From Flavobacteriales bacterium (GTDB lineage: Bacteria > Bacteroidota > Bacteroidia > Palsa-965), in assembly GCA_040377305.1 (NCBI GenBank), contig JBEIPA010000012.1, positions 27,653 to 91,652 on the forward strand: a stretch of DNA of 64,000 nucleotides, in the 5' to 3' direction. The translations under genes were made by a program, and so were the position numbers. The notes under the pieces were generated by a model. The model did not search any database and had not been told where the DNA came from. It was given only the letters and a program-made list of their open reading frames with translations. The first letter of the stretch is position 1; each line of letters starts with the position of its first letter. This document shows positions 9,075 through 49,172 of this stretch, one piece after another.

Positions 9075-9218
9075 ACACATAGTAACATAGACCGTCGTTT
9101 TCTGGTTGGGCGAAAGGAATACATAGTCCACAGGAGGATATCGCTTTACGCGATATTCTCTTGTGAACTATGATCGCGTAGCGCCTTAGCACTCAACGAA
9201 AACTATGTTCCTATGTGG
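9075..9218. repeat. nested palindromic (MITE/REP-like) element between convergent genes
   Basis: Outer inverted repeat CACATAGTAACATAG / CTATGTTCCTATGTG. Inner 23-nt arms CATAGTCCACAGGAGGATATCGC / GCGATATTCTCTTGTGAACTATG (20 of 23 complementary) surround a TTTAC loop. Confidence 0.6.
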
Positions 9219-15744: not shown

Positions 15745-17214
15745 ATGAACAACGTATTACAATCTGGTTACGATTCACTCCACTCAGAAGAGAAGCGCAA
15801 TTTGCGTCAACGGCTTTCTGATTCACCGCGTGCTATTCTGCTTTTGGATTTTCTGGAAGAGAGAAGAGGGAAGAAGTTCAATACTGTGGATGCGGTGAAC
15901 ACTGTATATAGTGATGAATCGGACGAAGAGTTTACAACACTGCGCAATCGTTTCTTCAAGCTTCGCAAGCACATCATTGAAACGCTTGATGAGAATACGG
16001 TGAATACGGGAACAGGAGTTTCGCTGCTACCCTTGGAGGAAGAGTTGTTTCGTTGCCGTCAAATGATCGGACAAAATCACTTTCAGCAAGCAGACAAACA
16101 GTTGAAAGCGCTGATCGCAGAATGCAAGCGACTCAATGTGTTTGAATTGCTGCCTGATGCTTACAACCAGATTGTTTATGCGAATCTCGCGCTGAACAAT
16201 TTCAAAGAGCACGAACGTAATTTGCGCGACCTTGAGGAATCGAGCAAGGTGCTGGACGATTTACGTACCATGCAGGTATTGTCGCGACGAATTTATGTGG
16301 GCGCAATTACCCGTAATACCAAGGAAGTGGTGAAGCAATTGCAGGCAATGCGCAGAATTGTTCTTCGTCGCAGTGCATTTCCACGCTTCGAATTGATTTA
16401 TCATTTCGTAGTAGTAACGAATGCGCCTTCTGTTCCCGGTTACAGCGGAAAAGGACACGCGCGACATTTGGCTTCGCTCAAGAAAATATCAGCGAAGCAT
16501 CCCGGAATGCCTGCTGCGAATTTCGAACCCAATGGAGCCGCGTTGATGCAATACTATCTGCTTGTCGCCGATGGATCACACCACTTCATGCGTGGTGATG
16601 TGCAAACCTGTTACAACCTCTTCAAAGAATCCTGGGATATCATGGAACGCATTCCGAATCTCAAGCTGAGAAAGTCGGAAAGCAATTTCAAGAACAGGAT
16701 TGCGATTGAAGTCGCAACGAATCGTTTCCGGGATGCTGTAAAGACTGCACATGATCTCATCGAATTTCAGAAGGAGAACAAGAATGAAGAGAAGCGCCTG
16801 AACGGTTTTGCAGAGCTTGCAGTTATTTACAGTTATGCATATCCTGCGCTGAAATGTCCCGATCCTGAATTTCTGTCGCGGCAGCTCAAAGTATTCACAT
16901 CCTTGCTCAAACGGGAAAAATCTGTTCTCCTCGGCGACGGGCAATCAACACAAGCCATTTTTGCTTTCATGAACAAAGACTGGAAGCTTGCAAACACGAT
17001 CATGCAGAATAAAGCTGCTCAGGATGTTTTCACTTCCATGGATCTTGAAATTTACAACGAAGTGCTGCTGATGTCGCCCGCAATGCCCGTTGAGAAAATC
17101 AAAGAGGTGAAGAAGCGTGCACAGACTATGCTCGACAAGTCGTTTTCTTCAGATCGGGTTTATTCGTTGAAGCGGGTGGTGAATTTGATCGGGATATTGG
17201 AGAATTCGCTGTGA
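15745..17214 (+). CDS. hypothetical protein (helical, no recognised domain)
   Basis: 489-aa uninterrupted ORF, convergent with the end of the cassette array. Confidence 0.6.
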   Translation: MNNVLQSGYDSLHSEEKRNLRQRLSDSPRAILLLDFLEERRGKKFNTVDAVNTVYSDESDEEFTTLRNRFFKLRKHIIETLDENTVNTGTGVSLLPLEEELFRCRQMIGQNHFQQADKQLKALIAECKRLNVFELLPDAYNQIVYANLALNNFKEHERNLRDLEESSKVLDDLRTMQVLSRRIYVGAITRNTKEVVKQLQAMRRIVLRRSAFPRFELIYHFVVVTNAPSVPGYSGKGHARHLASLKKISAKHPGMPAANFEPNGAALMQYYLLVADGSHHFMRGDVQTCYNLFKESWDIMERIPNLKLRKSESNFKNRIAIEVATNRFRDAVKTAHDLIEFQKENKNEEKRLNGFAELAVIYSYAYPALKCPDPEFLSRQLKVFTSLLKREKSVLLGDGQSTQAIFAFMNKDWKLANTIMQNKAAQDVFTSMDLEIYNEVLLMSPAMPVEKIKEVKKRAQTMLDKSFSSDRVYSLKRVVNLIGILENSL

Positions 17215-17271
17215 GAACACGATAGTAAATTAAGTGTTCTGTGCACTTAGTTGTTGTCCATGATAGCGTTG

Positions 17272-17868
17272 TCAAGTATACGACCTGGTGTTTTTGTAAT
17301 CATCAGTTAAAATGGTCGGTATTGCTGAAGTGGTATACTTTCTAAAATCCTTGACGGTTGTTTCATACTGCACATTGAGTGCCTGAAAAGCGTCAAATTG
17401 GATTTTGGAATAAATGTTGAATTTGAAGACGTGCATCTGACCATCTACGGTCTTAAGATAAACAAGTGCATTACCGTTACGTTCTATATCACGATGGTTG
17501 TTTCTAAAACCACAATAATGGTCATAGAATAGGAGGAAGGTGTTGATATGTGTTAGTGCTATAGCAAGTCGCTCATCCGGTTTTGTTATCGTGATTTCGT
17601 CCAACGTAAACGTAATTGTGCCGGCATAATTGCTGGGCTTGGGCCAGTCTGGATACAACCTCCGGATGTATTTATCAGTTACGAACAACAAACTCAAGAG
17701 TAATACGACAAATACAATTCCACGAGCCTCCCTTGAAACGGGAAGTGATTGAACGACGAGCAGCGTAATGATTGCAACAACAACTGATCGTGCGATTCGC
17801 GCTAAGCAGCCGTGGTCTGAAAGAACATTGATGTCATCACGGTACAAATTCAACTCAACGCTATTCAT
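17272..17868 (-). CDS. hypothetical membrane protein (distal cassette)
   Basis: 198-aa ORF with two hydrophobic helices. The start lies 8 nt past the diverged attC-like unit at 17877-17962. Confidence 0.5.
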   Translation of the reverse strand: MNSVELNLYRDDINVLSDHGCLARIARSVVVAIITLLVVQSLPVSREARGIVFVVLLLSLLFVTDKYIRRLYPDWPKPSNYAGTITFTLDEITITKPDERLAIALTHINTFLLFYDHYCGFRNNHRDIERNGNALVYLKTVDGQMHVFKFNIYSKIQFDAFQALNVQYETTVKDFRKYTTSAIPTILTDDYKNTRSYT

Positions 17869-17876
17869 TTATTGTT

Positions 17877-17962
17877 GCTTATGGTTTTCGGATTGACATC
17901 ATTAGCGTTTCCTTCAAATAACTATAACTGAAAAGTGGTTGGCAACAATTACACTCTTATGC
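17877..17962 (-). repeat. diverged (eroded) copy of the ~86-nt attC-like unit
   Basis: GCTTATGGTTTTCGGATTGAC..GCGTTTCCTTCAAATAACTATAACTGAAAAGTGG..CAACAAT..CTCTTATGC aligns end to end with the 25616-25700 unit. Both cores and most of the stem complementarity are degraded. The stop of ORF 17957-18394 lies in its CTTATGC end. Confidence 0.6.
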
Positions 17963-18394
17963 ATCAGTTTTCGCAAGGGCAGCTACTAACTCATCAGGCC
18001 TCTTTGTGGTCAATACAACTTTTGTTAGGCTGCCTGCTTCCGAAGTAAATTCGATTGCAACTGTTTCTTTGACCCGTTCAACGTTAACTATGTTTTTGAG
18101 CGGAACGCGGTGAAGCATCTCATACTGTTGTAGAAAACTGGCAAAAAGCAAAGGACATTTAAGCCAAAGTTCGCTGTCTGTCACAACAATGTCCAGTCCG
18201 CGACTTGTTCCGCCCAGTCTGGTCATAAGAGTCCGAGTAGAGTGTCCAGACGCAGAACGATCCCGATATTTCACCAGTACCGTTTCGATATCTGGAAATA
18301 TCGCAATTGCTTTTTTTCCTCGTGTATAAGCGAGATAAAACATAGTTAGCATCACGACACACCAACAAAGAAATAATACTGTTTGACCGTTCAT
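17957..18394 (-). CDS. hypothetical membrane-anchored protein (distal cassette)
   Basis: 145-aa ORF with one N-terminal hydrophobic helix. Confidence 0.5.
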   Translation of the reverse strand: MNGQTVLFLCWCVVMLTMFYLAYTRGKKAIAIFPDIETVLVKYRDRSASGHSTRTLMTRLGGTSRGLDIVVTDSELWLKCPLLFASFLQQYEMLHRVPLKNIVNVERVKETVAIEFTSEAGSLTKVVLTTKRPDELVAALAKTDA

Positions 18395-18452
18395 TTAATC
18401 GATTTTCCAAGCATTTATATTTCACGGTGATTTTTAGAAATTCCGGAAGCAG

Positions 18453-18911
18453 TTATTTCTCACAAATTTCCTTCAGCTTCTCCAATGCTTTTGGATATTT
18501 CTCGTTCATATAACCAACAAAATCTTCTGTGGTGTCTAAGTCAACAGTAACGGTCGTGGTTCCGTTGTTTTCTTCGAACGAATAGTTTTCAAATCCGTTT
18601 GCCCACTTTTCCACCTCAGGTCCGTCTGTAATTTCCTTGTCGCCTTGTACAAGGCCATAATGTTGGATCGAAACAAATTTGCCGGGAGTGTTTTCCGCTA
18701 TCCTGGAAACCATGCCTCCCTTTTCTCCGTTCTCCGAAACTCCGACAAAAAGAATTTTGCTTCCCTTGTCCCAGCTTCCTTCGAATGTCGAGGTTGCGTT
18801 AAACAGAGCAGTCCACTGCTCATACGTTGATTTATTGCTGATGCCAAGCATCACATCGTAAACCTTAGTTGCAGTTGCATTGATGTTTACTGTGAACTGG
18901 AGTTTTTTCAT
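18453..18911 (-). CDS. SRPBCC / AHSA1-like domain protein
   Basis: 152 aa. The N-terminal pattern KLQFTVNINATATKVYDVMLG...YEQW and the protein size fit Aha1/SRPBCC-fold proteins. Confidence 0.6.
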   Translation of the reverse strand: MKKLQFTVNINATATKVYDVMLGISNKSTYEQWTALFNATSTFEGSWDKGSKILFVGVSENGEKGGMVSRIAENTPGKFVSIQHYGLVQGDKEITDGPEVEKWANGFENYSFEENNGTTTVTVDLDTTEDFVGYMNEKYPKALEKLKEICEK

Positions 18912-19021
18912 GGTATTGAGTTTGTTTAGATTATACAGATTGTAATTGGAATGTTATTTCAATTCATATCTCGTGATACGAAACTTCAAATGAGCATAGA
19001 CTGACTTGTTTCTGCATGCAG

Positions 19022-20275
19022 TTAATATTTTATCAGTTTCGTCGTATAAGTTTTATTGGAGTCAAGTTCCCCGATGGTTAGAAAATATATTCCCGGTTGT
19101 AAACTAATTTGAACCTCTCCATTGTGTATTTCATCCGCATAAACTAATTGACCGACGGAGTTGTAAATGCTCAGATTTATGAGTCCGGTAACTCCAATAA
19201 TTTTGAATGAATTATCAATTGGATTTGGAAATATACTGATGACTGAACCAGAATAAAGTTCGTCATACCCCACAGACGAGGAGCAGTTTGATGGAATTGA
19301 ATCGGTCGAGTAAAAGTCAGTGCAATTATTACAGAATACACTCTTCATGAAGCAACTTGCTCTTTTAGCTCTAAACACACTACTTGCGTTTCGATAAATT
19401 CCATGTCCACCTGTGGTATCGATTGTTACTTCGCTGCAAATATTATTCGCAACCAAGTCATTATGTATTGCTCTGGAACCATTGAGTGTGTAGTGCAAAA
19501 ATGAATTGTCCGAATCAATCTGAACTAATGTGTCAAGTTCCCCATGAAAAGCAATGGTTGGTAGCATTTCTACACTATCAATTTCGGATTCAGTTACGCC
19601 TCCCCAATTATTAAAAATGCCTTTGAATGAATAACTGTTTGATAAATTATTTCCTGAAGTATAAAGGTTCCCTAATTCAACACTCGTAGCATTTGCGCTA
19701 TACAACAACGAGATGCTGTCAAGTTCTGATTGGTCGGCATACACCATACCTAATGCAAGTAATGAGCCTGCACTCTGACCTCCAACAAAAATCCAATTCG
19801 TATCTATTCTAACGGCATTTGCGTTGTTAACAACAAATCTCATTGCAGCGTGTCCGTCCTGAATGGCTCTGTATCTCGCCTTATATTGCCCGTATTCAGA
19901 AAAATCATGTCCAAGTCTGTAATTGACCGATGCACATACAAAACCTCTCAATGCCAAATGAACGCATAAGTCAGCGATGTCTCCGGATTGCTTGTCTCCT
20001 GAAGAGAAACCACCACCATGAAACAACATAATAAATGGACGTTTAGGCGACGAATCAATACCAAGATTTGGATAGTAGAGATCCAGAAGCAACGTGTCTG
20101 GATTTCCTAAATAATCTTGGGCGATACCATATTGAATATTTGTTCCAATCGTAATTTCGGTTGAATCAAAGTATTGGACTTCGGTATATCTCGTATCGCT
20201 GGTGCAATACTGTCCATAAGTTTCTCCAATCAAAAGAAATATGGCCGATGCAAGGACTAAAAATTTGGGTGTCAT
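19022..20275 (-). CDS. alpha/beta hydrolase (esterase, HGGG type) with T9SS C-terminal sorting domain
   Basis: Signal peptide. LFHGGGF oxyanion motif and GGQSAGS nucleophile elbow. C-terminal IFPNPIDNSFKI...GIYFLTI is a Por secretion tail. Confidence 0.8.
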   Translation of the reverse strand: MTPKFLVLASAIFLLIGETYGQYCTSDTRYTEVQYFDSTEITIGTNIQYGIAQDYLGNPDTLLLDLYYPNLGIDSSPKRPFIMLFHGGGFSSGDKQSGDIADLCVHLALRGFVCASVNYRLGHDFSEYGQYKARYRAIQDGHAAMRFVVNNANAVRIDTNWIFVGGQSAGSLLALGMVYADQSELDSISLLYSANATSVELGNLYTSGNNLSNSYSFKGIFNNWGGVTESEIDSVEMLPTIAFHGELDTLVQIDSDNSFLHYTLNGSRAIHNDLVANNICSEVTIDTTGGHGIYRNASSVFRAKRASCFMKSVFCNNCTDFYSTDSIPSNCSSSVGYDELYSGSVISIFPNPIDNSFKIIGVTGLINLSIYNSVGQLVYADEIHNGEVQISLQPGIYFLTIGELDSNKTYTTKLIKY

Positions 20276-20334
20276 TGATGTTTACTTTGAATAGATGTAT
20301 TAACCTCTTGTTTTATTATTTATTTGTGAGTCCT

Positions 20335-20892
20335 TCACATAGAATTTCCATCAAAGTCAATTTTATACTTTGTGCCATCGAGATTAGTAAGTTCGATCCA
20401 GTCGCTTTCAATTTTGAACACTTCTTCTCCGTCAAGTGACATTAAAATACCAACCTCCTTAAATTCCCAATTTATATATCCATCGCGGTCAAGTTGGGTG
20501 ACTTGCAATTCTCCGTGAACCAAATAATTGTCCTTGTGTTTGAATATTTGGAAACAAGAAGCAAAGTCTGCCTCGGTTTTCCATACGAGTTCCAGTTCAG
20601 TAAGTGTTAAGCAAAAAACGGAATTGCAGCAGCAGATTAGCAGTACATCGTCGTCAATCAATGCTGAGTTTTGAGAAACATCTGTCTTGCCACCATAGCC
20701 GATAATTATACAGTCGCTGATTAGCTTTCCATCCTGGAAGATCTTGACACCGTGTTTTGACGTCGGAAAGTCGTATGCCATGGATGCGAAATGCTCTTTG
20801 GAATAATTGAAGGCATTATTGTCAACGCCAGATTCGTAACCCGGTTCGTTTAACACTTCAACTATTAAGTCCTTGTATTGATATTGGCTCAT
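20335..20892 (-). CDS. hypothetical protein
   Basis: 185-aa ORF with no recognised motif. Confidence 0.5.
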   Translation of the reverse strand: MSQYQYKDLIVEVLNEPGYESGVDNNAFNYSKEHFASMAYDFPTSKHGVKIFQDGKLISDCIIIGYGGKTDVSQNSALIDDDVLLICCCNSVFCLTLTELELVWKTEADFASCFQIFKHKDNYLVHGELQVTQLDRDGYINWEFKEVGILMSLDGEEVFKIESDWIELTNLDGTKYKIDFDGNSM

Positions 20893-21009
20893 TCTATTGT
20901 GTTCTTATAGTCCAATGATTAGGTTAAATATCGAAATTATCTAAACAGAACATTCTTTTACTAACTATTCGATGAACACGTATTAAACTACATCCGTCCG
21001 CACCACCAT

Positions 21010-21792
21010 TTACACATTCTGATTATGAAACTTCAAAACCTTAAATCGTTCTTTTGTCCAGAGAATGGTCATTATTGAAACGGGAATAGCGAGCATGTTG
21101 AAGAACACAAAATTTTCATAAAATTTCGGGAATTCTCCAAAAACAGTTTTCACAGGTTCATTCAACGACTCATCATTTAAGAACATAATGTTTACAAGCA
21201 CGGTAACCACCAGCGCAATCACCATTGGCCAGATAGAAAACAAGCCATGTACTTTTCCGGTCTGCGTATTCTTCAACATCTCCAGGTAGCCGTATTGATT
21301 GGTAACGCCGGTCATCTGATCGCCTGTTTTTACTTTACTGTATGAACTGCTTCCTTCCAGAGTTCGGCCGGAAATAGTTATAAAATACGTAGTACGTTTT
21401 TCAAATGTACTGCTACGCGTTCCGGACCGCGGCAGGTGTGTATTCACAGTCTCTGTCTTCGATCGTTTATCGGTAACAGTGCCTGAAACAAACTGGTAAT
21501 TGAGCTTGGGCTTTTTTGATCCTGGGAGCGTTTCAATTAGTTTTTGATTTCCCCATTTCAAATCTTGCAGCGGAGAACTGAATGCAACGATTTCCTTGTC
21601 CGGATTGATTTCAAAAATGAATTCAAATTTTTGCGTGAAGTCAATTCCTGACGGGAGACTTTTACCCCGTGTTTGTAACTTAAACTTTTCTCCGTTGATC
21701 ATGAGTTCGTAAACGGGGTGAGGATCTCCGTATTCATCAAAATCACGACTGCTGTAACGTTGAATATTGGAACGTACTACTTTATTGCTCAT
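21010..21792 (-). CDS. hypothetical protein with C-terminal transmembrane helices
   Basis: 260-aa ORF. Soluble N-terminal part followed by two hydrophobic helices. Confidence 0.5.
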   Translation of the reverse strand: MSNKVVRSNIQRYSSRDFDEYGDPHPVYELMINGEKFKLQTRGKSLPSGIDFTQKFEFIFEINPDKEIVAFSSPLQDLKWGNQKLIETLPGSKKPKLNYQFVSGTVTDKRSKTETVNTHLPRSGTRSSTFEKRTTYFITISGRTLEGSSSYSKVKTGDQMTGVTNQYGYLEMLKNTQTGKVHGLFSIWPMVIALVVTVLVNIMFLNDESLNEPVKTVFGEFPKFYENFVFFNMLAIPVSIMTILWTKERFKVLKFHNQNV

Positions 21793-21840
21793 GAGGTGGG
21801 TGTTGTTCGCTGGTCTATTTGGAATATGTGCTGTTAGCGG
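21793..21840 (-). repeat. partial attC-like site (stop-proximal half only)
   Basis: ..GGAATATGTGCTGTTAGCGG resembles the ..CAAATGTGCTGTTATGC end of the 132-nt site and the ..GCGCTGTTAGC end of the 86-nt unit. I found no partner half. Confidence 0.4.
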
Positions 21841-21846
21841 CTGATT

Positions 21847-22911
21847 TCATATTTTTAGTTTAAACTTTTCAAACTTATTTCCATTTTGTTTGTAAACTCC
21901 GTCATTGTCAGTTCCAAGCCAAATTATTCCGCTGCTGTCTTGGTAGATAGATACTAGCAAGACATTTTCTGTACCCTTTTTTACTTCAAGGTTGGTGAGC
22001 GTTTTACCGTCATATTTCCAAACTCCACCACCATAAGTAGTCATGAATAAATTACCATCTTGATCTACAATTCCTGAGTTGAAATAATGGGGTTTTTCTT
22101 TTCGAACACCCTTTATTATTTCATATTGTAAATTGTTCGATTCAATTTTATACTTGCTTATAAAATTGCTCAACCAAAAATATCCGTCTTTGTCTTGAAT
22201 GATTGAACGAACACCGCCAGCAGTGCCATCTGGGAGAATTGAAAGTTCTTTTTCATCAAACCACATAAACGATTTTCCATCGTATCGGAACGCACCTGCT
22301 ACAAAAGTTCCAAACCAAATATTTCCGTCTTTGTCTTTATTTATGCCATAAACTGAATAAGGGTTATTGCTATTAAAAGGGCTGATTAGCGTGTCAATTC
22401 CAAACGCTTTATTTAAATCTTTCCGTGGCAATTTTAATTCAAAAAGAGAATCGCCACTATAACGGAATAAATCATTTGCATTGTAGCCAAACCATAAGTC
22501 ATTCGGTAAAAGTTTCCATTGGTTATGTGACGATTTTATTGGCTTTAAAGTGGTAAATTGATTTCCGTCAAATTTGCTTATTCCTTTGTGTGTTTCGATG
22601 TATATGTTTCCGTCAGTATCTTCTTGAATACCACGGATTGAATCGTTCACTAATCCGTCTACTGTTGTAAATTGTTTTAACTCGTTTCCATCTAAAGAAT
22701 AGATACCGTTTCCATTGCTACCAAACCAATATTTTCCTTTTGAGTCTTGAAATATTCTCCAAATTTGATTATCCAGTTCAGAAATCACTTTGCCAATTTG
22801 TACAGTTTCTGTTTCAGTCTTTTTGTGTTCAGATTGCATCTGTCCTTTGCATGAGAGGAAACTAATCGAAACAAAAACTATTGAGATTGTTTTTATAGTG
22901 GTAATTGTCAT
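21847..22911 (-). CDS. lipoprotein with beta-propeller repeats of the two-component-regulator-propeller (Reg_prop) type
   Basis: Signal plus lipobox (FLSC). Repeated D-x-x-G-x-[IY]W[FL]G[ST] motifs: DSKGKYWFGS, DKDGNIWFGT, DKDGYFWLS, DSSGIIWLGT. Confidence 0.65.
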   Translation of the reverse strand: MTITTIKTISIVFVSISFLSCKGQMQSEHKKTETETVQIGKVISELDNQIWRIFQDSKGKYWFGSNGNGIYSLDGNELKQFTTVDGLVNDSIRGIQEDTDGNIYIETHKGISKFDGNQFTTLKPIKSSHNQWKLLPNDLWFGYNANDLFRYSGDSLFELKLPRKDLNKAFGIDTLISPFNSNNPYSVYGINKDKDGNIWFGTFVAGAFRYDGKSFMWFDEKELSILPDGTAGGVRSIIQDKDGYFWLSNFISKYKIESNNLQYEIIKGVRKEKPHYFNSGIVDQDGNLFMTTYGGGVWKYDGKTLTNLEVKKGTENVLLVSIYQDSSGIIWLGTDNDGVYKQNGNKFEKFKLKI

Positions 22912-22943
22912 TTCAATATTAATATGGCTGGTTTAAAGTTGCC

Positions 22944-23027
22944 GCTAACATTTCGCGGATTGGCGTCGCGCGCTTTTCCTTCTAATAAATATACGTGAAA
23001 AGCGCAAAGTGCCAATGCGCGATTAGG
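22944..23027 (-). repeat. attC-like imperfect palindrome (86-nt family)
   Basis: GCTAAC..CGGATTGGCGTCGCGCGCTTTTCC-TTCTAATAAATATAC-GTGAAAAGCGCAAAGTGCCAATGCGC-GATTAGG. The stop of ORF 23023-23469 lies inside the ATTAGG core. Confidence 0.7.
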
Positions 23028-23469
23028 GGCTGATAGCTCTTATCGGTTTCCAAACGAAATAGAACGCTCCAATAAGTATGTTCACAAGCGAAATAATATA
23101 AACTGAATTATACGTTTCAGACCTATAATAACTCAATCCGGCTTCTGTGTGCATATTCACTCCGGGATGAGAATTGTCGACGATGCAAAATGCGAAAATT
23201 AGAATTCCGATAGCTTGTAATATAAAAATGGATCCTTTAGCCAATCTACTCTTTACTTTTCGTGTCTGTCGAATAAAAACAAAGTAACAGACTGGAAAGA
23301 CAACAAATAAGAAAAAGTAATTGTACATGATTGAAGTCACGTGCATACCAAAAGTCACACCATCATGAATGTCCTTGGTCTGGATTCCAACGGAAGGGAT
23401 AATCAGTGAAGAAGTCAACACGATCAGAAATGCCGATCCTAATTTATTGAGATTAGTGAAGTCTGTCAA
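23023..23469 (-). CDS. hypothetical membrane protein (cassette)
   Basis: 148-aa ORF with about four hydrophobic helices. The only available start is a TTG lying within the GTTGAC core of the mini-site at 23465-23504. Confidence 0.5.
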   Translation of the reverse strand: MTDFTNLNKLGSAFLIVLTSSLIIPSVGIQTKDIHDGVTFGMHVTSIMYNYFFLFVVFPVCYFVFIRQTRKVKSRLAKGSIFILQAIGILIFAFCIVDNSHPGVNMHTEAGLSYYRSETYNSVYIISLVNILIGAFYFVWKPIRAISP

Positions 23470-23504
23470 CGTTCTTATGTTTGGAGTCGCTCAGTGCTTT
23501 TAGC
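23465..23504 (-). repeat. 40-nt mini attC-like site lacking the central stem-loop
   Basis: GTCAAC-GTTCTTATGTTTGG..GTGCT-TTTAGCA keeps both ends of the 86-nt unit (compare GCTAAC-GTTTTGCGGATTGG...GCGCT-GTTAGC). Confidence 0.5.
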
Positions 23505-23511
23505 AGTAGGG

Positions 23512-24042
23512 TCACACTTCGGCTTGAAGCAGTTTGTCAATACCTCGAATTATCAAATCGCGATGGGCATAAAATGATTTCGGAAAATCTTCGGTACCAA
23601 CATGTGGGCGCTTTTCCAATGCAAACCAATTGCGGAGACCTATCAGGTTCTCTTTTTTACGTGCCAATAGATACCGTGAATCAACCGCAACCTTATAGAA
23701 ATATAGTTCATCAGTGAGTGTAGCTTTCTGAATCGAACCGCATTCTAGACATTTTATAAGGCCGATCTTTTTGTCCAGTTCATCTGTTTCGGAAAACATT
23801 AGCGGATACAGATTCATTAGCCACGTTGGATCTTTCATCCAAACTTTACCTCCGAAAAGTTCATTTACAATTATTCCATTGTCAGGCTTATAGCACGCGG
23901 AAATTTCAGAGAAAGTCGCGTTAGTATATCGATCCTTAATTACAGCTATGTGCTCTTCATAAATCCGACGGAATGGGAAGGTGAACTGAGCTTTAGCAGA
24001 ACAGGTAGGGCAAACCACATCAATGTCATAATTAATCGTCAT
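23512..24042 (-). CDS. hypothetical protein with two CxxC pairs (zinc-ribbon-like) (cassette)
   Basis: 176-aa ORF carrying VVCPTCSAK and IKCLECGS. Confidence 0.55.
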   Translation of the reverse strand: MTINYDIDVVCPTCSAKAQFTFPFRRIYEEHIAVIKDRYTNATFSEISACYKPDNGIIVNELFGGKVWMKDPTWLMNLYPLMFSETDELDKKIGLIKCLECGSIQKATLTDELYFYKVAVDSRYLLARKKENLIGLRNWFALEKRPHVGTEDFPKSFYAHRDLIIRGIDKLLQAEV

Positions 24043-24054
24043 GTGGACAATTAC

Positions 24055-24138
24055 GCTTAACGTTTATGGATTGGCGCCGCGCTTTTTCCTTCTAATAAAT
24101 ATACGTGAAAAGTGGAGGGTGACAATACGCTGTTACCC
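24055..24138 (-). repeat. attC-like imperfect palindrome (86-nt family, moderately diverged)
   Basis: GCTTAAC-GTTTATGGATTGGCGCCGCGCTTTTTCC-TTCTAATAAATATAC-GTGAAAAGTGGAGGGTGACAATACGCT-GTTACCC. Confidence 0.65.
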
Positions 24139-24155
24139 GTAGCAGTTGTATCAAA

Positions 24156-24518
24156 CTACTGCTTATCTGTCTCATTTTTGAACTCCTCGAGCATGCGATA
24201 AAACATATCTATTGATTCCAAATGCTGCTGTTTCGATGGTATCGTTTCCAGCATAACGTTCCAATCGATTTCTCTCGGTTCGAAGCCCATGCATTTGGCA
24301 AGAATCATATTGGCCCAACCTGCTGTGGATTCGTAATAGTCAAGTTTGCTAGCAACCCAGTCGTGAAATGGGTCTGATTGTAATTCAAATTTGTCTTCAA
24401 CCAGCGCATGATGGTAACCAGAAATGTAAATGTGTATACTTTTTAAGGTGAGTTCTCCAGTGAACATTGCTGGTCGACCTTCTATTTGCTTCAACACCGG
24501 ATAACAGTTCAGTATCAT
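24156..24518 (-). CDS. hypothetical protein (cassette)
   Basis: 120-aa ORF with no recognised motif. Confidence 0.55.
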   Translation of the reverse strand: MILNCYPVLKQIEGRPAMFTGELTLKSIHIYISGYHHALVEDKFELQSDPFHDWVASKLDYYESTAGWANMILAKCMGFEPREIDWNVMLETIPSKQQHLESIDMFYRMLEEFKNETDKQ

Positions 24519-24608
24519 ATTTTGCGATTAGGGGTTTGGGGAATTGCGACTCTCTTGTCCTTCTAATCAATATACATAAAAGCGCGTGGAGCCAATGCGC
24601 TGTTAGCA
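24519..24608 (-). repeat. attC-like site with one intact and one scrambled half
   Basis: The right half CTTCTAATCAATATACATAAAAGCGCGTGGAGCCAATGCGCTGTTAGCA is canonical. The left half ATTTTGCGATTAGGGGTTTGGGGAATTGCGAC is only partly related, and it contains GCGATTAGGGG as in the 23018-23030 core. Confidence 0.5.
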
Positions 24609-24612
24609 CCAG

Positions 24613-25113
24613 TTATTGTTTGCTCCGCTCTTCCCACCACTTTTTTATTTCCTGTACTCTTGTCGAATCAGTGATAGAACAGTCGACAAAGAAATTTGGG
24701 TACGGCTCATTTTTTCGATACGAATCAATTATATTCATCACCTGCCCTCCCAATGTAGAAAAATCATCACTGCCTGGCTTCCAATCGGATGAAATTGATT
24801 CCTTGACGCATTTAGCACGCCGCTTGGATTCTATTAATGTCATCAAATAATTTAAGTCAGATTCCTTAATCCAATCCGATTTGGCTCTGTTTCCAGTTGT
24901 CAGGCGATAAATGGTATATATTCCCCTTTCTTCGAATTTGAGCAGTTCAACATAATCTACCACTGTAATTCTGTGAAAAAAAATCCAATCGTATTTATGG
25001 CGTTTTTGCTTATAGCGGTGGGTCGCTTCATTTAAATTAGCTCTTTCCATTGAGTCTGCATGGTCCGAACATGCTGCCAGACTAATTGCAAATATTAAGA
25101 GCAGTCTGATCAT
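24613..25113 (-). CDS. hypothetical lipoprotein (cassette)
   Basis: 166-aa ORF with signal plus lipobox (SLAAC). Confidence 0.55.
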   Translation of the reverse strand: MIRLLLIFAISLAACSDHADSMERANLNEATHRYKQKRHKYDWIFFHRITVVDYVELLKFEERGIYTIYRLTTGNRAKSDWIKESDLNYLMTLIESKRRAKCVKESISSDWKPGSDDFSTLGGQVMNIIDSYRKNEPYPNFFVDCSITDSTRVQEIKKWWEERSKQ

Positions 25114-25125
25114 ATTAAAATTGGT

Positions 25126-25204
25126 GGTAACGTTTTTCGGATTGGCGCCGCGCGCTTTTCATTCTAATAAATATACGTGAAAAGAGCCCTTGAGCTGGTT
25201 AAGA
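25126..25204 (-). repeat. attC-like imperfect palindrome (86-nt family, right arm eroded)
   Basis: GGTAAC-GTTTTTCGGATTGGCGCCGCGCGCTTTTC-ATTCTAATAAATATAC-GTGAAAAGAGCCCTTGAGCTG-GTTAAGA. The stop of ORF 25199-25606 lies inside the GTTAAG core. Confidence 0.65.
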
Positions 25205-25606
25205 ATTGGTGTTTTCCCGATGTGCCACTTTGAACAGCATTGCGATTTGAATAAGCCCAAGAACCAGGAATGGAATTGCTGTCCACAAGTAAATGTCAGT
25301 CCCTCGCCAATAGCAATCAGGAATGATGAAAAATTGATAATGGACAATTTCAATCGTGAGGAGAATGAATCCTGCAGCGAAAAATTTGAGAGACCTTAAG
25401 TTCGAAGTTGCAATCGCTAGTATTAAGCAAAGTAGTCCGATGAAATATATTAGTGCTATGAAAAAACTGTCGAGGGTTGTTAGCGACAAGTTAAAAGCCA
25501 TTAGTCCAATTGTAGGGAATGAGAATTTGTTGCCGCTTCTAAATTGTATCAAAGTTAAAACGAGGCAAGCAATTTTCAGAAATAATTGACTTCTTCTGGA
25601 GATCAT
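25199..25606 (-). CDS. hypothetical membrane protein (cassette)
   Basis: The track ORF runs to 25687, but its first 27 codons are encoded by the attC-like repeat. The ATG at 25606 gives a 135-aa protein with about four hydrophobic helices. Confidence 0.55.
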   Translation of the reverse strand: MISRRSQLFLKIACLVLTLIQFRSGNKFSFPTIGLMAFNLSLTTLDSFFIALIYFIGLLCLILAIATSNLRSLKFFAAGFILLTIEIVHYQFFIIPDCYWRGTDIYLWTAIPFLVLGLIQIAMLFKVAHRENTNS

Positions 25607-25615
25607 ACGCTTGCT

Positions 25616-25700
25616 GCTAACGTTTTGCGGATTGGCGCCGCGCGCTTTTCCTTCCAATAAATATACGTGAAAAGCGCATGGTGCCAATGCGCTGTTAGCG
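25616..25700 (-). repeat. attC-like imperfect palindrome (86-nt family, well preserved)
   Basis: GCTAAC-GTTTTGCGGATTGGCGCCGCGCGCTTTTCC-TTCCAATAAATATAC-GTGAAAAGCGCATGGTGCCAATGCGCT-GTTAGCG. The cores are exact reverse complements. The GCGCTTTTC/GAAAAGCGC arms pair perfectly. Confidence 0.75.
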
Positions 25701-25707
25701 TATCGTG

Positions 25708-26190
25708 CTACCGACTTTTGTTCTTCGATTTATTGCGAGCTTCAAATTCTGCGATCAGGGTGTTCAATTGAATTACCTGTTCAGTATTAATTGAACCTGT
25801 TTGTTGTGCTACAACTATATTGTCGATGACATAGTCGTATTCATGAATGTTCTTTATTTTATTTCTTCGGAGAGCATCCTGAATCGCATCCTTCTTTTTG
25901 AATTGAAGTCCCGCACTTGCAATCAATTGCCAGAATTTGTCACTGTCAGGCCCCGCAGTTTCATTCCAGTAGATTAGAAAGTCATGTTCAAGATATTTGA
26001 GACTGGCGACCTTTCTGAATTGCGGCTCAGGATTTAGTGCCAATTTCCTAGTATTGGATGAAAAGAACAAAAGTGGCTCCTTGATGGATGCAGGCAAAGT
26101 TGACGATTCAGAAACTACCTGTTCGGCAATATCGATTGCTTTAACCAATTCATTGGCTCGCTCTTCATAAATCGACTTCTTGGTAGTCAT
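25708..26190 (-). CDS. hypothetical protein (cassette)
   Basis: 160-aa ORF. Predicted soluble, with a basic C-terminal tail. Confidence 0.55.
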   Translation of the reverse strand: MTTKKSIYEERANELVKAIDIAEQVVSESSTLPASIKEPLLFFSSNTRKLALNPEPQFRKVASLKYLEHDFLIYWNETAGPDSDKFWQLIASAGLQFKKKDAIQDALRRNKIKNIHEYDYVIDNIVVAQQTGSINTEQVIQLNTLIAEFEARNKSKNKSR

Positions 26191-26201
26191 AGGGCATGTA
26201 C

Positions 26202-26287
26202 GCTAACGTTTTGCGGATTGGCGCCGCCCGCTTTTTCCTTCTAATAAATATACATGAAAAGCGCGTGGTGCCAATGCGCTGTTATGC
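26202..26287 (-). repeat. attC-like imperfect palindrome (86-nt family, well preserved)
   Basis: GCTAAC-GTTTTGCGGATTGGCGCCGCCCGCTTTTTCC-TTCTAATAAATATAC-ATGAAAAGCGCGTGGTGCCAATGCGCT-GTTATGC. Confidence 0.75.
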
Positions 26288-26292
26288 GGTAG

Positions 26293-26736
26293 TTATTTTA
26301 TCTCAGAAACGTGAATGTCGCTACATGTTATCACGTTGATGATATGTCTTGCCGTTACGACAACATAGTGCCGAATTGAACTTTCCGAATTTAATTGGAA
26401 TCCCAGCGTTTCATTTCTGCAGTATGTGAGGTAAGATGATTTCGTGTAAACTCTAATGCGATCGCCGTCGTACTCGCCAAATACGCCAGCGTCATAGCTT
26501 TCGTTAACAACGTGATATGCGATATAAGACGTAAAATGTAATCGATATAATGCGCCGGAGTCGAAATTTACCGGGTAAACCGGACCTATATCGGTTTGTG
26601 ATATGTTTAAACTCTGGGAAAGTTCGGACACTTCGCCTGCAATCAGATCAATTATCAATTCATTCTCGCTGGGTTCAAATAATTTATCAACTAACAGGTT
26701 TCGGCAAGCATTAACTATGTCGTATGGTGTTGTCAT
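26293..26736 (-). CDS. hypothetical protein (cassette)
   Basis: 147-aa ORF with no recognised motif. Confidence 0.55.
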   Translation of the reverse strand: MTTPYDIVNACRNLLVDKLFEPSENELIIDLIAGEVSELSQSLNISQTDIGPVYPVNFDSGALYRLHFTSYIAYHVVNESYDAGVFGEYDGDRIRVYTKSSYLTYCRNETLGFQLNSESSIRHYVVVTARHIINVITCSDIHVSEIK

Positions 26737-26743
26737 AAATTAC

Positions 26744-26829
26744 GCATAACGTTTTGCGGATTGGCGCCGCGCGCTTTTCCTTCTAACTAATATACATGAA
26801 AAGCGCGTGGTGCCAATGCGCTGTTAGGC
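26744..26829 (-). repeat. attC-like imperfect palindrome (86-nt family, well preserved)
   Basis: GCATAAC-GTTTTGCGGATTGGCGCCGCGCGCTTTTCC-TTCTAACTAATATAC-ATGAAAAGCGCGTGGTGCCAATGCGCT-GTTAGGC. The stop of ORF 26824-27252 is the TTA of GTTAGGC. Confidence 0.75.
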
Positions 26830-27252
26830 GTTGGACTTTCCTGAAGTTCCTTGAAAAACATCTTTATATTCAGGATGCTTCTTTTTGTCACTTGCCGAGA
26901 GCACGGTTCGCAATGCATTAGCGAGCACCCACTTCATGGATCGATCTTCTTCTTTATAGAAATGTTCGAGTAATTTGTCTTTCGCAATCGATCGGGCCGA
27001 TTTCTCAGTTAGTGCTCTGATAATGCCTTCTCTTATACGCGAATGATGCGGAAGGTCAAGGTGTTTAACCAGGATTGGGTAGGCCTGTTCGTACGAACCG
27101 AGAAACTTGTTTTCTAAATGCTCGACAGCACGATTATTTACTAAATCATAAACACTTTCTACAATACATCCTACGGCATTCAGTTCACGAACAAGTGTCT
27201 CTTGGTCTTTGAGAAGCATCTGATGAAATTCTTGTTTTTCAAGCTCGTTCAT
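26824..27252 (-). CDS. hypothetical all-helical protein (possibly HEAT/armadillo-like) (cassette)
   Basis: 142-aa ORF. The heptad-like helical pattern ..IREGIIRALTEKSARSIAKDKLLEHF..WVLANALRTV.. supports the fold guess only weakly. Confidence 0.5.
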   Translation of the reverse strand: MNELEKQEFHQMLLKDQETLVRELNAVGCIVESVYDLVNNRAVEHLENKFLGSYEQAYPILVKHLDLPHHSRIREGIIRALTEKSARSIAKDKLLEHFYKEEDRSMKWVLANALRTVLSASDKKKHPEYKDVFQGTSGKSNA

Positions 27253-27265
27253 GTACGTGTCTTGC

Positions 27266-27397
27266 GCCTAACGTTTTGCAGATTTGCGATGGGCGGGCTT
27301 TTTAACACAACTGGTCATTCGGAGAACTGAACTTTCGGTAACCACAAAACTGTCTGCGGAGAACGAAACCCTGCCTATTGCAAATGTGCTGTTATGC
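27266..27397 (-). repeat. attC-like site of a different sequence family (132 nt), nearest the recombinase
   Basis: It has the same cores (GCCTAAC ... GTTATGC) and complementary arms (GCAGATTTGCGATGGGC / GCCTATTGCAAATGTGC). Its interior is longer and unrelated to the 86-nt unit. Track ORF 27268-27492 lies inside it and is spurious. Confidence 0.65.
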
Positions 27398-27409
27398 GTT
27401 CGCCATTCT

Positions 27410-28021
27410 TTACTCATTGGTGATGTCCTCAATTTTAGTTGCAAATTTTCTGTTGTCCTTTGAGATATGTTCGTAGTTGTCTTGTCCAACAAAAAAACTC
27501 GAAGGTGTCCAACTGTTTGTTAAAGGAGTTTTCAAATTGTCCAAGTAATATTGTCCTGAAACTTCAAAGTCAAGAATTGCAAGTTGAAAAGGGTAGATTT
27601 TATATAACTGTTTCAATATTGTCGCAAAGAACTTTTTCAACTCGCTAGGGACTTTTGGGTTTTCAGTCCAAGTTTTGTATTCAGAACCGAACACCTTTTC
27701 TATTGCTGCTGTGTAAAAACAAATGTCAAACCAATTAAAGCCAGTTTCTACTGGCTCGTCTTCTCGTATATTGTATGTCATAAATGGAATTGCATAATTG
27801 TCAAGGTGCAAAACTCCAATATGTTGAATATTTACAATGTCAATTGGGATTGAATTATTATTTACGTCAAAAGGTCCTTCAACGTTTTTTAAAGACCAAA
27901 TAAAGTCAGTGTAAAGCCTTATTGGTTCGTTGTCTGCACTGGGACAAACTTGAATAGCAAGTTCGTAAAAACCACCTGTTCTTAATTCTTTGTCAAGAAG
28001 TATATCGTTACTTTTTGTCAT
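27410..28021 (-). CDS. hypothetical protein (first cassette)
   Basis: 203-aa ORF with no recognised motif. The start lies 33 nt past the GCATAAC core at 28055-28061. Confidence 0.55.
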   Translation of the reverse strand: MTKSNDILLDKELRTGGFYELAIQVCPSADNEPIRLYTDFIWSLKNVEGPFDVNNNSIPIDIVNIQHIGVLHLDNYAIPFMTYNIREDEPVETGFNWFDICFYTAAIEKVFGSEYKTWTENPKVPSELKKFFATILKQLYKIYPFQLAILDFEVSGQYYLDNLKTPLTNSWTPSSFFVGQDNYEHISKDNRKFATKIEDITNE

Positions 28022-28151
28022 TCGTTCTCTAGCGCTGTAGTTTTATATGGTGACGCATAACTAGTTTATTTGCGCTACATCGTAGCGCAAATAAACCCTA
28101 GATGGCTGTATTGGCGCGTAAACATCCGATTTAGCTCATACAATTTACAAA
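28022..28151 (-). other. candidate attI-equivalent region (core GTTATGC plus perfect 15-bp inverted repeat)
   Basis: The core GCATAAC at 28055-28061 reads GTTATGC in array orientation. A perfect palindrome GTTTATTTGCGCTAC-ATC-GTAGCGCAAATAAAC lies at 28064-28096. GTATTGGCGCG at 28108-28118 echoes the repeat arm. Confidence 0.4.
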
Positions 28152-29033
28152 TTAAAGTGAATCGAAAGGCGAACGTATTTTCCCGATTGCATGGGCGCTT
28201 ACGTGGGTATAAATCTCTGTCGTTTTGCTGCTCGCATGCCCCAACAACTCCTGAATGTATCGAAGATCTGTTCCCGACTCCAGCAGATGAGTGGCAAAAC
28301 TGTGCCGTAACCAATGAAGTGTGACCGGTTTCGTAATTCCCGCTCGGGCAACACTTTGCTTCAGCACCTGCTGCAAACTCCGGGCATCGTAGGGTTGACC
28401 GCACTCTTGTCCTTCGAATAGATATTTTACAGGACGATACGATTTGAAATATTCACGCAACTGCTCGAGAATCTTTTCACTCAACGGAACAATTCTGTCC
28501 TTACGGCCTTTCCCATTCTTAATGATGACGAGCATGCGATTCGAATCAATATGCTCCGGCAAAAGACCGATCAATTCTCCACTGCGCAATCCGCAACTGT
28601 AAATGAGCGATAACATAGCTTTGTGCTTGGTATTTATTGTGCGTGTAAGCAGAAGCTTTACTTCTTCTTTACTCAGCACATTCGGTAGTGGCTTTCCGCG
28701 ACGCGGCCGATAGATCAATTCCGGATTCAGAATCTTATTGTGCAGAATCCGGAAGTACAACTTTATTGCGTTGATACATTGATTCTGAAAGGACACAGAC
28801 AATTCCTTCGCAATGATGTATTCCGAATTGAAACGCTGTACATCTGTGTTTGTAATCACAGAAACATCCTTGTCGCAAAAGGAAATAAATGTCCGTAAGC
28901 ATTCCGTGTAAACCTTTATCGTACCATTACTATAACGGCGCGACTTCAGCCAGTCACTGAACTGTTCCATAGATGGAGTGGGTGCTCCCCGTCCGACCGG
29001 CTCGTCCGGGCGGGCATAAGTGTTCTCTTTCAT
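28152..29033 (-). CDS. tyrosine recombinase, IntI-related in several segments but with XerC/D-like spacing (no IntI-specific insertion)
   Basis: 293 aa. Catalytic set: R (SCGLRSGEL), K (GKGRKDR), HWLRH, LLGH and Y (EIYTHV). Also carries RPRRGKPLPNVLSKEEV, AGITKPVTLHWLRHSFATHLL and the C-terminal IRSPFDSL. An alternative start is Met22 at 28970. Confidence 0.85.
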   Translation of the reverse strand: MKENTYARPDEPVGRGAPTPSMEQFSDWLKSRRYSNGTIKVYTECLRTFISFCDKDVSVITNTDVQRFNSEYIIAKELSVSFQNQCINAIKLYFRILHNKILNPELIYRPRRGKPLPNVLSKEEVKLLLTRTINTKHKAMLSLIYSCGLRSGELIGLLPEHIDSNRMLVIIKNGKGRKDRIVPLSEKILEQLREYFKSYRPVKYLFEGQECGQPYDARSLQQVLKQSVARAGITKPVTLHWLRHSFATHLLESGTDLRYIQELLGHASSKTTEIYTHVSAHAIGKIRSPFDSL

Positions 29034-29092
29034 ATTTTATCTTTTTCGTAGCGTACATATAGCTGCAAAGTAAAATGATAAAAATGAAATAG

Positions 29093-29116
29093 CCGTTTGT
29101 AAACGTTTGTAAACGG
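29093..29116. promoter_or_regulatory. near-palindromic tandem motif upstream of the recombinase gene (candidate operator)
   Basis: CCGTTTGTAAACGTTTGTAAACGG, i.e. two CGTTTGTAAA units, 60 nt upstream of the ATG at 29033. Confidence 0.3.
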
Positions 29117-29140: not shown

Positions 29141-29392
29141 TCATTGTCATCCCGATAGCTATCGGGATGAGCGTAGCCGAAGGGTGACAAGTGAAGGCCA
29201 GACTGAACGTATCCAGATAGCGATCGGGAGACGGGTGATAAGCAGCGTAGTCGAATTCACTTCTGTTGATCTTGGTACATTGTCAGATTGAGCACTTCGA
29301 CAGGCTCAGCACAGGCTTCGCCGAAGGTTGACAAGCAGAATTGTGAGACTCAGCGCCTGACCGCTGTGGAGCGTAGCTGAAGGTTGACGAAC
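29141..29392. repeat. cluster of REP-like elements (GTCA..GAGCGTAGCCGAAGGGTGAC family)
   Basis: TCATCCCGATAGCTATCGGGATGAGCGTAGCCGAAGGGTGACAAG. Also TGTCAGATTGAGCACTTCGACAGGCTCAGCACAGGCTTCGCCGAAGGTTGACAAG and GTGAGACTCAGCGCC..GGAGCGTAGCTGAAGGTTGACGAA. Confidence 0.6.
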
Positions 29393-29430
29393 AGAAAACA
29401 AAAGCCCACGAAGTTTAAACTCCGTGGGCT
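29390..29430 (-). terminator. rho-independent terminator after the giant adhesin gene
   Basis: The minus strand reads AGCCCACG-GAGTTTAAACTT-CGTGGGCT followed by TTTGTTTTCTG. The stem is a perfect 8 bp. Confidence 0.65.
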
Positions 29431-35941: not shown

Positions 35942-36165
35942 GATTTTTTTGTTTGTTTCACGATCACAATACAAAAGTATTGCCGTGACAGCGGGCAAAT
36001 TTACCGGACAGAACTCGTAACCGCGATTAAGGACTTACTTTTGGTATTTCCATGACGTAAGTCGTTGAAAACTAGCAATTAAAGGTACTTGGATGTGAAC
36101 TCACAGTACCCTTGTGTCAAGGTTTTGTCGATTGACTTATCTTCGCAGGAACAAACAAAAAACAC

Positions 36166-48915: not shown

Positions 48916-49172
48916 TGGGTTTATGCGTACCCAACAAATCTATACTTGCAGTGCGCGCACAACGGCCGACGTTATTCACAATTACCAACATGAAAATGTG
49001 AATACGACAATGAACGAAACGATGAAAGCCCCGTCGATAGAGGCTTTCAGAGGTTTTGAAGAATGATGTTGTAGTGTTAGTCGTTATTCACATTTGACTG
49101 TTAGCGAATGTTCCTTGATACGTTCCACGAATGTGTGGCTCAAGCTTTCGCTGAGTCTTAGCGTCGCTACGA

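Follow-up and report, generated by a model that had tools for sequence, protein, structure and literature searches.

A 64-kb stretch of a Bacteroidota chromosome (the window, whose coordinates are used throughout) carries a row of co-oriented open reading frames (ORFs) separated by imperfect palindromes, with a tyrosine recombinase gene at its head. We propose, judging from the sequence and at a probability of roughly 0.8, that site-specific recombination built this locus as a chromosomal array of gene cassettes that works like an integron. Cassettes are read here in their coding (minus) orientation, and the plus strand of the window is the bottom strand relative to the ORFs. In the proposed mechanism, each cassette would consist of an ORF and an attC-like imperfect palindrome, the bottom strand of which would fold into a hairpin, and an Xer/IntI-type recombinase without the I2 insertion of integron integrases would exchange strands within an invariant GTT. 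Recombination between two attC sites would excise cassettes as circles, and recombination between attC and attI would insert them at a conserved site just downstream of the recombinase gene. By analogy with integrons and with CTXphi/XerCD, we infer that the adjacent recombinase is the catalyst, that single-stranded DNA folds in vivo and that replication resolves the one-strand exchange.

The ORF listing bore out the layout given in the original prediction, an earlier reading of the same sequence: all 16 substantial ORFs between 17272 and 28021 lie on the minus strand, and the recombinase gene (28152-29033) placed at their head is intact, with PF00589 and PF13495 domains. In minus orientation, each unit reads stop codon, RYYYAAC, palindrome, GTTRRRY and the next ATG. 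With respect to the ORFs, the palindromes have the predicted attC orientation. Between the R' box and the following start codon there are 7-13 nt, and 32 nt after the site at 22943, as had been estimated. RYYYAAC occurs in the window as GCTAAC, GCATAAC and GCCTAAC, and GTTRRRY as GTTAGCG, GTTATGC and GTTAGGC. The array had seemed richer in A and T by eye, and its GC content is indeed 0.34-0.43, compared to 0.44-0.49 in the flanks; the low GC extends through the distal stretch (17272-21792). Pfam domains were absent from 12 of the 16 array ORFs, and a PADLOC search of 10 window cassettes for known defence proteins gave no matches.

Repeats are present at all eight spacers predicted to be palindromic, but three of them (25126-25204, 24519-24608 and 24055-24138) are decayed. 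The diverged copy and the partial copies that had been described were also recovered (17869-17962, 21793-21846 and 23470-23511), giving 11 sites, of which five are well formed, three decayed and three remnants or diverged copies. The 22-mer core of the repeat occurs eight times in the window, always within the array (0 expected by chance), and the repeats are arrayed, not dispersed, both here and in metagenome copies. A T-rich stretch noted earlier as unpaired in one arm is real and corresponds to a conserved 4-5-nt bulge (GTTTT on the plus strand). DNA folding z-scores of the five well-formed sites range from -2.4 to -6.5 on the plus strand, which folds better than the coding strand by 5-9 kcal/mol. 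This preference for the bottom strand is as anticipated for attC sites; the canonical R/L box geometry with extrahelical bases was not found.

Individual sites differ in how well they have been kept. The first site (attC 1) folds at -22.1 kcal/mol on the plus strand and -12.9 kcal/mol on the minus strand, and is 82-90% identical to sites in Flavobacterium, Pedobacter and Chitinophaga metagenome-assembled genome (MAG) arrays. The second folds at -29.7 kcal/mol (z = -6.5), and attC 9 at -26.7 kcal/mol. In contrast, attC 7 has lost its fold (-7.8 kcal/mol, z = +0.4), and intact sites are almost absent from the distal half of the array (17.2-22.9 kb). No Rfam family matched the repeats; the only look-alikes were microRNAs far below threshold.

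The ends of the cassettes carry the signature expected of circular cassettes recombining within GTT. Cassettes 1-4 and 10 start with 8-10 nt (GTTATGCGT, GTTAGGCG, GTTATGCG, GTTAGCGTA and GTTAGCGGC, respectively) that are the exact reverse complement of the R'' box at their own far end. For comparison, we fetched 85 loci encoding recombinase homologs 57-86% identical to that of the window, from Flavobacterium, Chitinophaga, Saprospiraceae, Pedobacter, Epilithonimonas, Chryseobacterium and many MAGs. Across these loci, 25 of 69 comparisons of R'' with the R' of the preceding attC gave agreement at 7-8 of 9 positions; when R'' was compared with the R' of its own attC the figure was 7 of 121, and with a randomly chosen R' it was 3 of 592. 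GTT is preceded by a site-specific base (A at attI, C at attC) and followed by a cassette-specific one, and this combination places the crossover within GTT, as in integrons. We regard the position of the crossover as established by these comparisons.

The same complementarity was found where the array meets the recombinase gene. In the window, GTTATGCGT at the attI junction matches ACGCATAAC, the R'' of the first attC, and in 33 of 37 loci the 9 nt past the attI GTT complement the R'' flank of the first downstream attC at 7 or more of 9 positions, compared to 3.5% in the control. The attI hairpin has 15 bp and lies in a region with a folding energy of -18.6 kcal/mol (z = -5.0). L003 (85% protein identity) and L001 (73%), the loci closest to the window, share the attI region, including a compensatory change in the stem; in BLAST, their similarity to the window stops at 28058/28059, with complete divergence after GTT. 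Four Flavobacterium loci (L015, L023, L031 and L077) likewise have virtually identical attI regions that diverge directly after GTTA. A core motif, TATAWRNNAGTT, lies 81-95 nt past the recombinase stop codon in 62 of 76 loci, compared to 0.009 expected, and is preceded by a palindrome of ~75 nt in which lineage-specific, mutually complementary boxes surround a conserved TCTACCCA-N4-6-TGGGTAGA centre. Owing to the lineage-specific boxes, a narrow regular expression (GCGCTA-N-TAGCGC) recovered the attI hairpin in just 6 of 82 loci, and the core motif was used instead. Between the stop codon and attI, 45 of 68 relatives have TAnnTTTG, the Bacteroidetes -7 promoter motif and a candidate cassette promoter, pointing into the cassettes (0.03 expected).

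Two further observations concern the attI palindrome. Its TCTACCCA-N4-6-TGGGTAGA centre (L004-L087, for example L062 8850-8925; window 28097-28125) resembles a classical tyrosine-recombinase core site. The TCTACCCA/TGGGTAGA inverted repeat lies ~30 nt from the cassette junction, and the 17-nt boxes that flank it are lineage-specific yet complementary.

A generic AAC...GTT hairpin finder gave 0.43 matches/kb downstream of the recombinase genes in coding orientation, compared to 0.11/kb upstream, with a length peak at 130-139 nt. It was replaced by a covariance model, given its background of ~0.1/kb and its failure to recover branched or mutated sites. Forty-two distinct sites from many genera could be aligned without a gap in the arms, AAC and GTT being invariant. 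Their conserved fold has a 7-bp R box at its base; above it come a 5-nt bulge on the R'-L' arm opposite a single nucleotide, 3 bp, a 1x1 mismatch and a stem of ~16 bp. In these sites, 86.5% of positions are paired, compared to 61.9% in shuffles, compensatory cells number 263 compared to 95, and the covariation score is 0.61 compared to 0.18 in shuffles and 0.09-0.14 in slid registers; 18 of the 19 stem pairs covary with compensatory changes. A conserved G·T at columns 26-67, present in 36 of 42 sites, pairs on the bottom strand only, being a C·A mismatch on the opposite strand. Covariation of this extent establishes the architecture of the sites.

The covariance model, R1, drew on 52 full-length sites, of which all but one came from other genomes (51). 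In the window it detected 86-nt repeats absent from its training (E = 1e-13 to 7e-12), on the plus strand only (attC 2 scored 12.5 bits on the minus strand), and it found nothing outside the array repeats over the 64 kb. Over 86 recombinase loci (982 kb), R1 found 137 sites at E <= 1e-3, all downstream of the recombinase and 136 on the bottom strand, and no site in the 577 kb upstream of it. Of the 34 loci with 3 kb or more of downstream sequence, 33 have a site. The share of coding sequence that runs in the direction of the recombinase gene is 88% downstream and 58% upstream, and GC falls downstream of the recombinase in 26 of 31 loci. The distribution of R1 sites establishes that they are linked to this recombinase family.

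In a separate observation, about 40 of 80 fetched contigs (L008-L087) stop no more than ~1 kb past the recombinase gene, which is what repeated or variable DNA would be expected to cause. This suggests that assemblies break systematically at the arrays and that arrays are under-represented in draft genomes and MAGs.

Comparison with relatives, which the original prediction had called for, revealed different cassettes joined by common attC sites. The DNA shared between the window and other arrays was confined to the recombinase/attI region and the attC sites (82-97% identity) and never included ORFs. An exact 21-mer of the 86-nt unit was found on 17 metagenome contigs; on those with the full unit, the units form arrays in the orientation of the ORFs, interspersed with 132-nt sites. 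Homologs of two distal window ORFs serve as cassettes elsewhere; one of the two is ORF 20335-20892, whose homolog is the first cassette of L059, and the homolog of cassette 10 in L061 directly precedes an attC. These comparisons establish the modularity of the cassettes. Equal-length 257-aa ORFs in L103 and L104 were considered as a common cassette and were set aside, as they have no similarity at the DNA level.

The recombinase/array layout was also found on Chryseobacterium plasmids, and the recombinase family has three matching places in one plasmid record. The plasmid-borne array of Chryseobacterium sp. SNU WT5 (L105; NZ_CP041688.1, 9900-17500) carries an IS110-family transposase element inserted just past the R'' box of an attC (...CTGGTAACA|IS) and a bottom-strand group II intron within another R'' box (...CCAGGTAA|intron|CAGTATTTC...). 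Insertions that target attC in this way are known for integron attC sites (PMC3001079). The same array has three copies of an ORF-less cassette of ~190 nt (GTTGGGA...TCCCAAC plus a 148-nt hairpin).

Downstream of the recombinase in L001 (11300-19540) and L004 (14300-20590), palindromic sites enclose large units that are multi-gene defence systems. The L001 unit comprises a PLD-SNF2 helicase, an MmeI-like methyltransferase, SduA_C and a DprA-like gene, and the L004 unit a Dnd-like set. These units are flanked by a second palindromic family with no GTT end (GCCAAC..CACATTGNCAA...CACAAGCCAAC...GGCAAAGAG), located at 11157-11223 and 19543-19611 in L001 and at 20586-20680 in L004.

The recombinase had been singled out as unusual, and we confirmed that it is without the IntI-specific domain. 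Its match to the integron integrase model TIGR02249 (212 bits; cutoff 265) falls into two stretches that skip profile positions 182-254, and ~42 residues are absent precisely at the I2 insertion relative to VchIntIA (2A3V). In the AlphaFold model (AF2; predicted local distance difference test ~90 in the catalytic domain), a single helix (186-199) and a short loop occupy the I2 position, and the IntI insertion is absent from every family member in alignments A2 and A4. The top NCBIfam match is XerA_Arch, borderline at 220.9 bits (cutoff 220), and the scores for XerD (196; cutoff 329.6) and XerC (184; cutoff 335) are below threshold. Foldseek placed VchIntIA 2A3V (2e-16) and XerA 5HXY (3e-16) in a tie, and identity is ~28-33% to IntI4, IntI2, XerA, XerC and XerD alike (31-33% for XerA). 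By these measures the enzyme is equidistant from IntI and XerA. R150, K175, H240, R243, H266 and Y275 are invariant across the family, and no second tyrosine recombinase was found in the window. Most homologs (~345-375 aa) have an extra N-terminal domain of ~55 aa (H..........FEKD....K.....RWS.....W.LP) with no Pfam match; in A2 and A4 this domain precedes window residue 20, and the attI box layout of the window clade differs as well. The sequence preceding the recombinase gene has a duplicated TTTACAAACG motif, possibly a promoter or regulator site; the motif is also found upstream of the L003 homolog and within the first, ORF-less cassette of L003. In addition, Acinetobacter plasmids (hits H10-H25) carry a widespread tyrosine recombinase, named TnpF in one record, that is 43.5% identical to the window enzyme.

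The likeness to integrons, including sedentary chromosomal ones and the 'inverted-integrase' group of Treponema, Chlorobi and others, extends to many features: cassettes made of a promoterless ORF and an imperfect palindrome with RYYYAAC/GTTRRRY ends, a crossover within GTT that leaves each cassette beginning with its own R' remainder, an attI adjoining the integrase gene, and a bottom strand whose folding is better than that of the top strand. In both, the attC sites of one array are near-identical, the cargo is mostly ORFan and GC is low. Also common to both are defence systems carried as cassettes (here in the relatives L001 and L004), attC-targeting IS110 and group II intron insertions (here in L105) and the existence of chromosomal and plasmid-borne versions. 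The original prediction of an integron-like chromosomal cassette array is supported by the GTT permutation signature and by the attI-like junction beside the recombinase. Since the recombinase has no IntI insertion and the attC geometry is different, the array falls outside the strict definition of an integron, and 'integron-like' is the apt term.

The differences are specific. Unlike integron integrases, the recombinase is without the I2 insertion and under the cutoff of the integron-integrase model. Canonical attC sites have a roughly symmetric unpaired spacer and single extrahelical bases (G, T), whereas the sites described here have an asymmetric 5-nt/1-nt bulge and a 1x1 mismatch, with no single-base bulges seen; the 5-nt spacing on the R''-L'' arm is common to both. 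By analogy, the bulge and mismatch may stand in for the extrahelical bases and I2 in strand choice. The preferred site length (~132 nt) also differs from that of integrons, as does the position of attI, which in contrast to the classical layout lies downstream of a co-oriented integrase and after a conserved palindrome of ~75 nt. The host phylum, too, is one reported to be essentially integron-free. Like known attC-type arrays that have no protein with an IntI-specific profile nearby, the array has no such protein adjacent to it; unlike them, it is physically linked to a conserved recombinase family and an attI.

Xer systems offer a second comparison. In the integration of CTXphi by XerCD at dif1, and in that of integrative mobile elements exploiting Xer (IMEX), an Xer-type enzyme that has no I2-like domain joins a folded hairpin of single-stranded DNA to a chromosomal site by recombination. 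However, CTXphi hijacks the housekeeping XerCD and its hairpin mimics duplex dif, whereas the dedicated recombinase, own attI and many modular cassettes described here form a self-contained platform. Archaeal XerA is the closest enzyme in sequence and fold, and a single recombinase gene beside its site is also seen in XerS/difSL and XerH/difH, but those enzymes resolve chromosome dimers at one dif site, without cassette arrays or hairpin sites.

A full-text literature search returned no description of an I2-less recombinase cassette system, and this is apparently an undescribed, phylum-wide variant of the integron principle; preprints on Antarctic CALIN elements proved to be unrelated. IntegronFinder surveys reported only In0 elements and one complete integron, in Salinibacter, for Bacteroidetes (PMC9024848), and in a 2024 preprint Bacteroidota are counted with the clades 'without any integrons'. 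Escudero et al. saw in I2 and attC a chicken-and-egg paradox for which 'functional intermediary forms' are awaited, and named CTXphi/XerCD as the sole analogous reaction (PMC4792948). If functional, the system would imply that I2 and extrahelical bases are not required for cassette recombination at folded hairpins, and it would be either a 'functional intermediary form' for this paradox (PMC4792948) or an independent invention of the integron principle. It would also be a natural experiment in how a tyrosine recombinase handles folded single-stranded sites without I2, making the origin of integrons from Xer-like ancestors directly testable.

Both the definition of an integron and the programs that look for integrons rely on the IntI-specific domain and the canonical attC model. 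A large family that works on the same principle without the IntI-specific domain would be invisible to integron-search tools, which would explain why Bacteroidota have been reported as nearly integron-free. We lean slightly towards a phylum-wide, previously unrecognised class of Bacteroidota integron, found on chromosomes and plasmids, with an I2-less Xer-like integrase and bulge/mismatch attC sites. Such a class would bring gene capture by cassettes to a major phylum of environmental and host-associated bacteria, plasmids included, and would add a reservoir of cassettes that in relatives includes defence systems.

Several points weigh against the proposed reading. The I2 insertion has been treated as necessary for attC recombination (PMC4792948; PMC4889954). 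R1 found no site in the three-cassette region of a class 2 integron (best 9 bits, E = 0.2), for which L107 was the control and L106, with a single cassette only, was set aside; the likeness to canonical attC may reflect either homology or convergence. Part of the bias across loci towards a more stable bottom strand comes from selection by the hairpin finder. In the window, 6 of the 11 sites are decayed or remnants, and an exact TAnnTTTG is not evident between the recombinase stop codon and attI, where read-through from the recombinase gene could possibly transcribe the cassettes. The window recombinase was found on one contig only, and its clade (282-293 aa) is without the ~55-aa N-terminal domain of most family members.

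The strongest rival explanation, which we consider doubtful though by no means negligible, is that a once functioning cassette array has become an inactive relic in this genome, with decaying sites and accessory genes that form a static island beside a recombinase gene. The decay of three of the eight spacer repeats, the three further remnants and the distal 5.6 kb with its one diverged site are consistent with this explanation, as is the loss of the N-terminal domain in the window recombinase clade. It is opposed by an intact recombinase ORF with all catalytic residues, four proximal attC sites that score 53-105 bits and fold well, and an intact attI that matches the R'' of cassette 1. The attC sites are also 90-97% identical to those of other arrays, which argues for recent exchange or selection. 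Of the cassettes in this genome, the proximal four or five look mobilisable and the distal half looks fossilised.

Another possibility, an improbable one, is that a housekeeping single-Xer enzyme acts at a dif-like site beside its gene, as in XerS/difSL and XerH/difH, and that the cassettes are IMEX-like tandem hijackers. The XerA match, the resemblance of the attI centre (TCTACCCA-N4-6-TGGGTAGA) to a classical core site and the precedent of CTXphi, in which Xer enzymes recombine folded single strands (PMC4792948), would fit such an enzyme. However, the cassette junction is a GTT ~30 nt past the inverted repeat and not within it, the scores are far under the XerC and XerD cutoffs, and the family occurs on plasmids, with three places in one record. 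The cassettes, moreover, are single promoterless ORFs with a common site architecture, not autonomous elements.

We give still less weight to mobilisation of the sites in trans by another enzyme, such as a canonical IntI elsewhere in the genome, with an unrelated Xer-like or phage-type integrase as the neighbour. Only 64 kb of this genome are in view, which leaves room for such an enzyme, but the location of all 137 R1 matches downstream of the recombinase family and none upstream argues for the neighbour, as do the attI core at a fixed distance from the stop codon (62 of 76 loci), the junction complementary to the first R'' (33 of 37) and the identical layout on Chryseobacterium plasmids. Integron surveys also found almost no IntI in Bacteroidetes (PMC9024848). 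That the repeats are dispersed repetitive extragenic palindromes, miniature inverted-repeat transposable elements or transcription terminators is very improbable: they are intergenic GC-rich palindromes and 25126-25204 is flanked by a direct repeat, but within the 64 kb they occur only inside the array and always in one orientation relative to the ORFs, no T-tract follows them, no Rfam family matches, and complementarity between boxes at cassette ends would not be expected of such elements.

The features of the array, which we read as a chromosomal cassette array of integron type, are listed in Table 1. One of the listed ORFs was corrected: that annotated at 25199-25687 has a TTG start inside a repeat, and its real start is the ATG at 25606.

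Table 1. Features of the putative cassette array and adjoining recombinase gene (window coordinates; R1, covariance model score)
Feature	Position	Strand	Description
Upstream region of recombinase gene	29034-29110	-	Duplicated TTTACAAACG motif (29070-29100)
Tyrosine recombinase	28152-29033	-	293 aa; intact ORF; Xer/IntI-like; co-oriented with cassettes
attI-like site	28056-28151	-	Conserved hairpin 28064-28096, then AAACTA|GTT; junction G at 28061; cassette 1 begins
Cassette 1 ORF	27410-28021	-	203 aa; no known domain
attC 1	27266-27397	- (folded strand +)	132-nt class; R1 105 bits
Cassette 2 ORF	26824-27252	-	142 aa; weak HEAT-repeat match
attC 2	26744-26829	-	86-nt class; R1 59.9 bits, E = 1.4e-13 on + strand
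Cassette 3 ORF	26293-26736	-	147 aa; no domain
attC 3	26201-26287	-	87 nt; R1 53.5 bits; folds
Cassette 4 ORF	25708-26190	-	160 aa; no domain
attC 4	25615-25700	-	86 nt; R1 57.2 bits; folds
Cassette 5 ORF	25199-25606	-	~135 aa; hydrophobic
attC 5	25126-25204	-	Decayed; R''/L'' arm gone
Cassette 6 ORF	24613-25113	-	166 aa
attC 6	24519-24608	-	Decayed; L'/R' arm gone
Cassette 7 ORF	24156-24518	-	120 aa
attC 7	24055-24138	-	Boxes kept, stem decayed; R1 12.1 bits, E = 0.4
Cassette 8 ORF	23512-24042	-	176 aa
attC remnant	23470-23511	-	R'' side only
Cassette 9 ORF	23023-23469	-	148 aa; membrane-like
attC 9	22943-23028	-	86 nt; R'' AAC changed to AAT; R1 22.4 bits, E = 8e-4
Cassette 10 ORF	21847-22911	-	354 aa; Reg_prop beta-propeller; start GTTAGCGGC, end GCCGCTAAC
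attC remnant	21793-21846	-	R'' box and beginning of L'' arm only
Distal repeat-poor part of array	17272-21792	-	Six co-oriented ORFs, one diverged attC (17869-17962)
Distal ORFs	21010-21792, 20335-20892, 18453-18911, 17957-18394, 17272-17868	-	
Distal ORF, esterase	19022-20275	-	Type IX secretion system (T9SS) tail
Diverged attC copy	17869-17962	-	The one diverged attC of the distal part

The locus is chromosomal and belongs to a Bacteroidota genome, with uvrA at 50039-52888 and several window proteins with T9SS sorting domains. Just upstream of the recombinase locus, 29450-35998 encodes a T9SS-secreted protein of 2182 aa with multiple lectin and Ig-like domains, and three copies of a ~26-nt repeat (GCTTCGCCGAAGGTTGACAAGC-like) lie at 29171-29396. 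Within the array, attC 5 (25114-25210) is flanked by the short direct repeat CACCAATT(C/T)TTAA, which may be chance or the trace of another insertion event. Two palindromes elsewhere in the window were considered as sites and rejected. The first, a long palindrome at 9080-9213 (-26 kcal/mol on both strands), sits between the convergent ORFs 8553-9074 (+) and 9219-10028 (-) and is not among the R1 matches. The second, also without an R1 match, is a solitary 124-nt hairpin between two minus-strand ORFs (48983-49106), whose internal loop is a symmetric 3x3; it has attC-like ends (CGCTAACAG...CATGTTGGTA) and a terminator-like inner hairpin.

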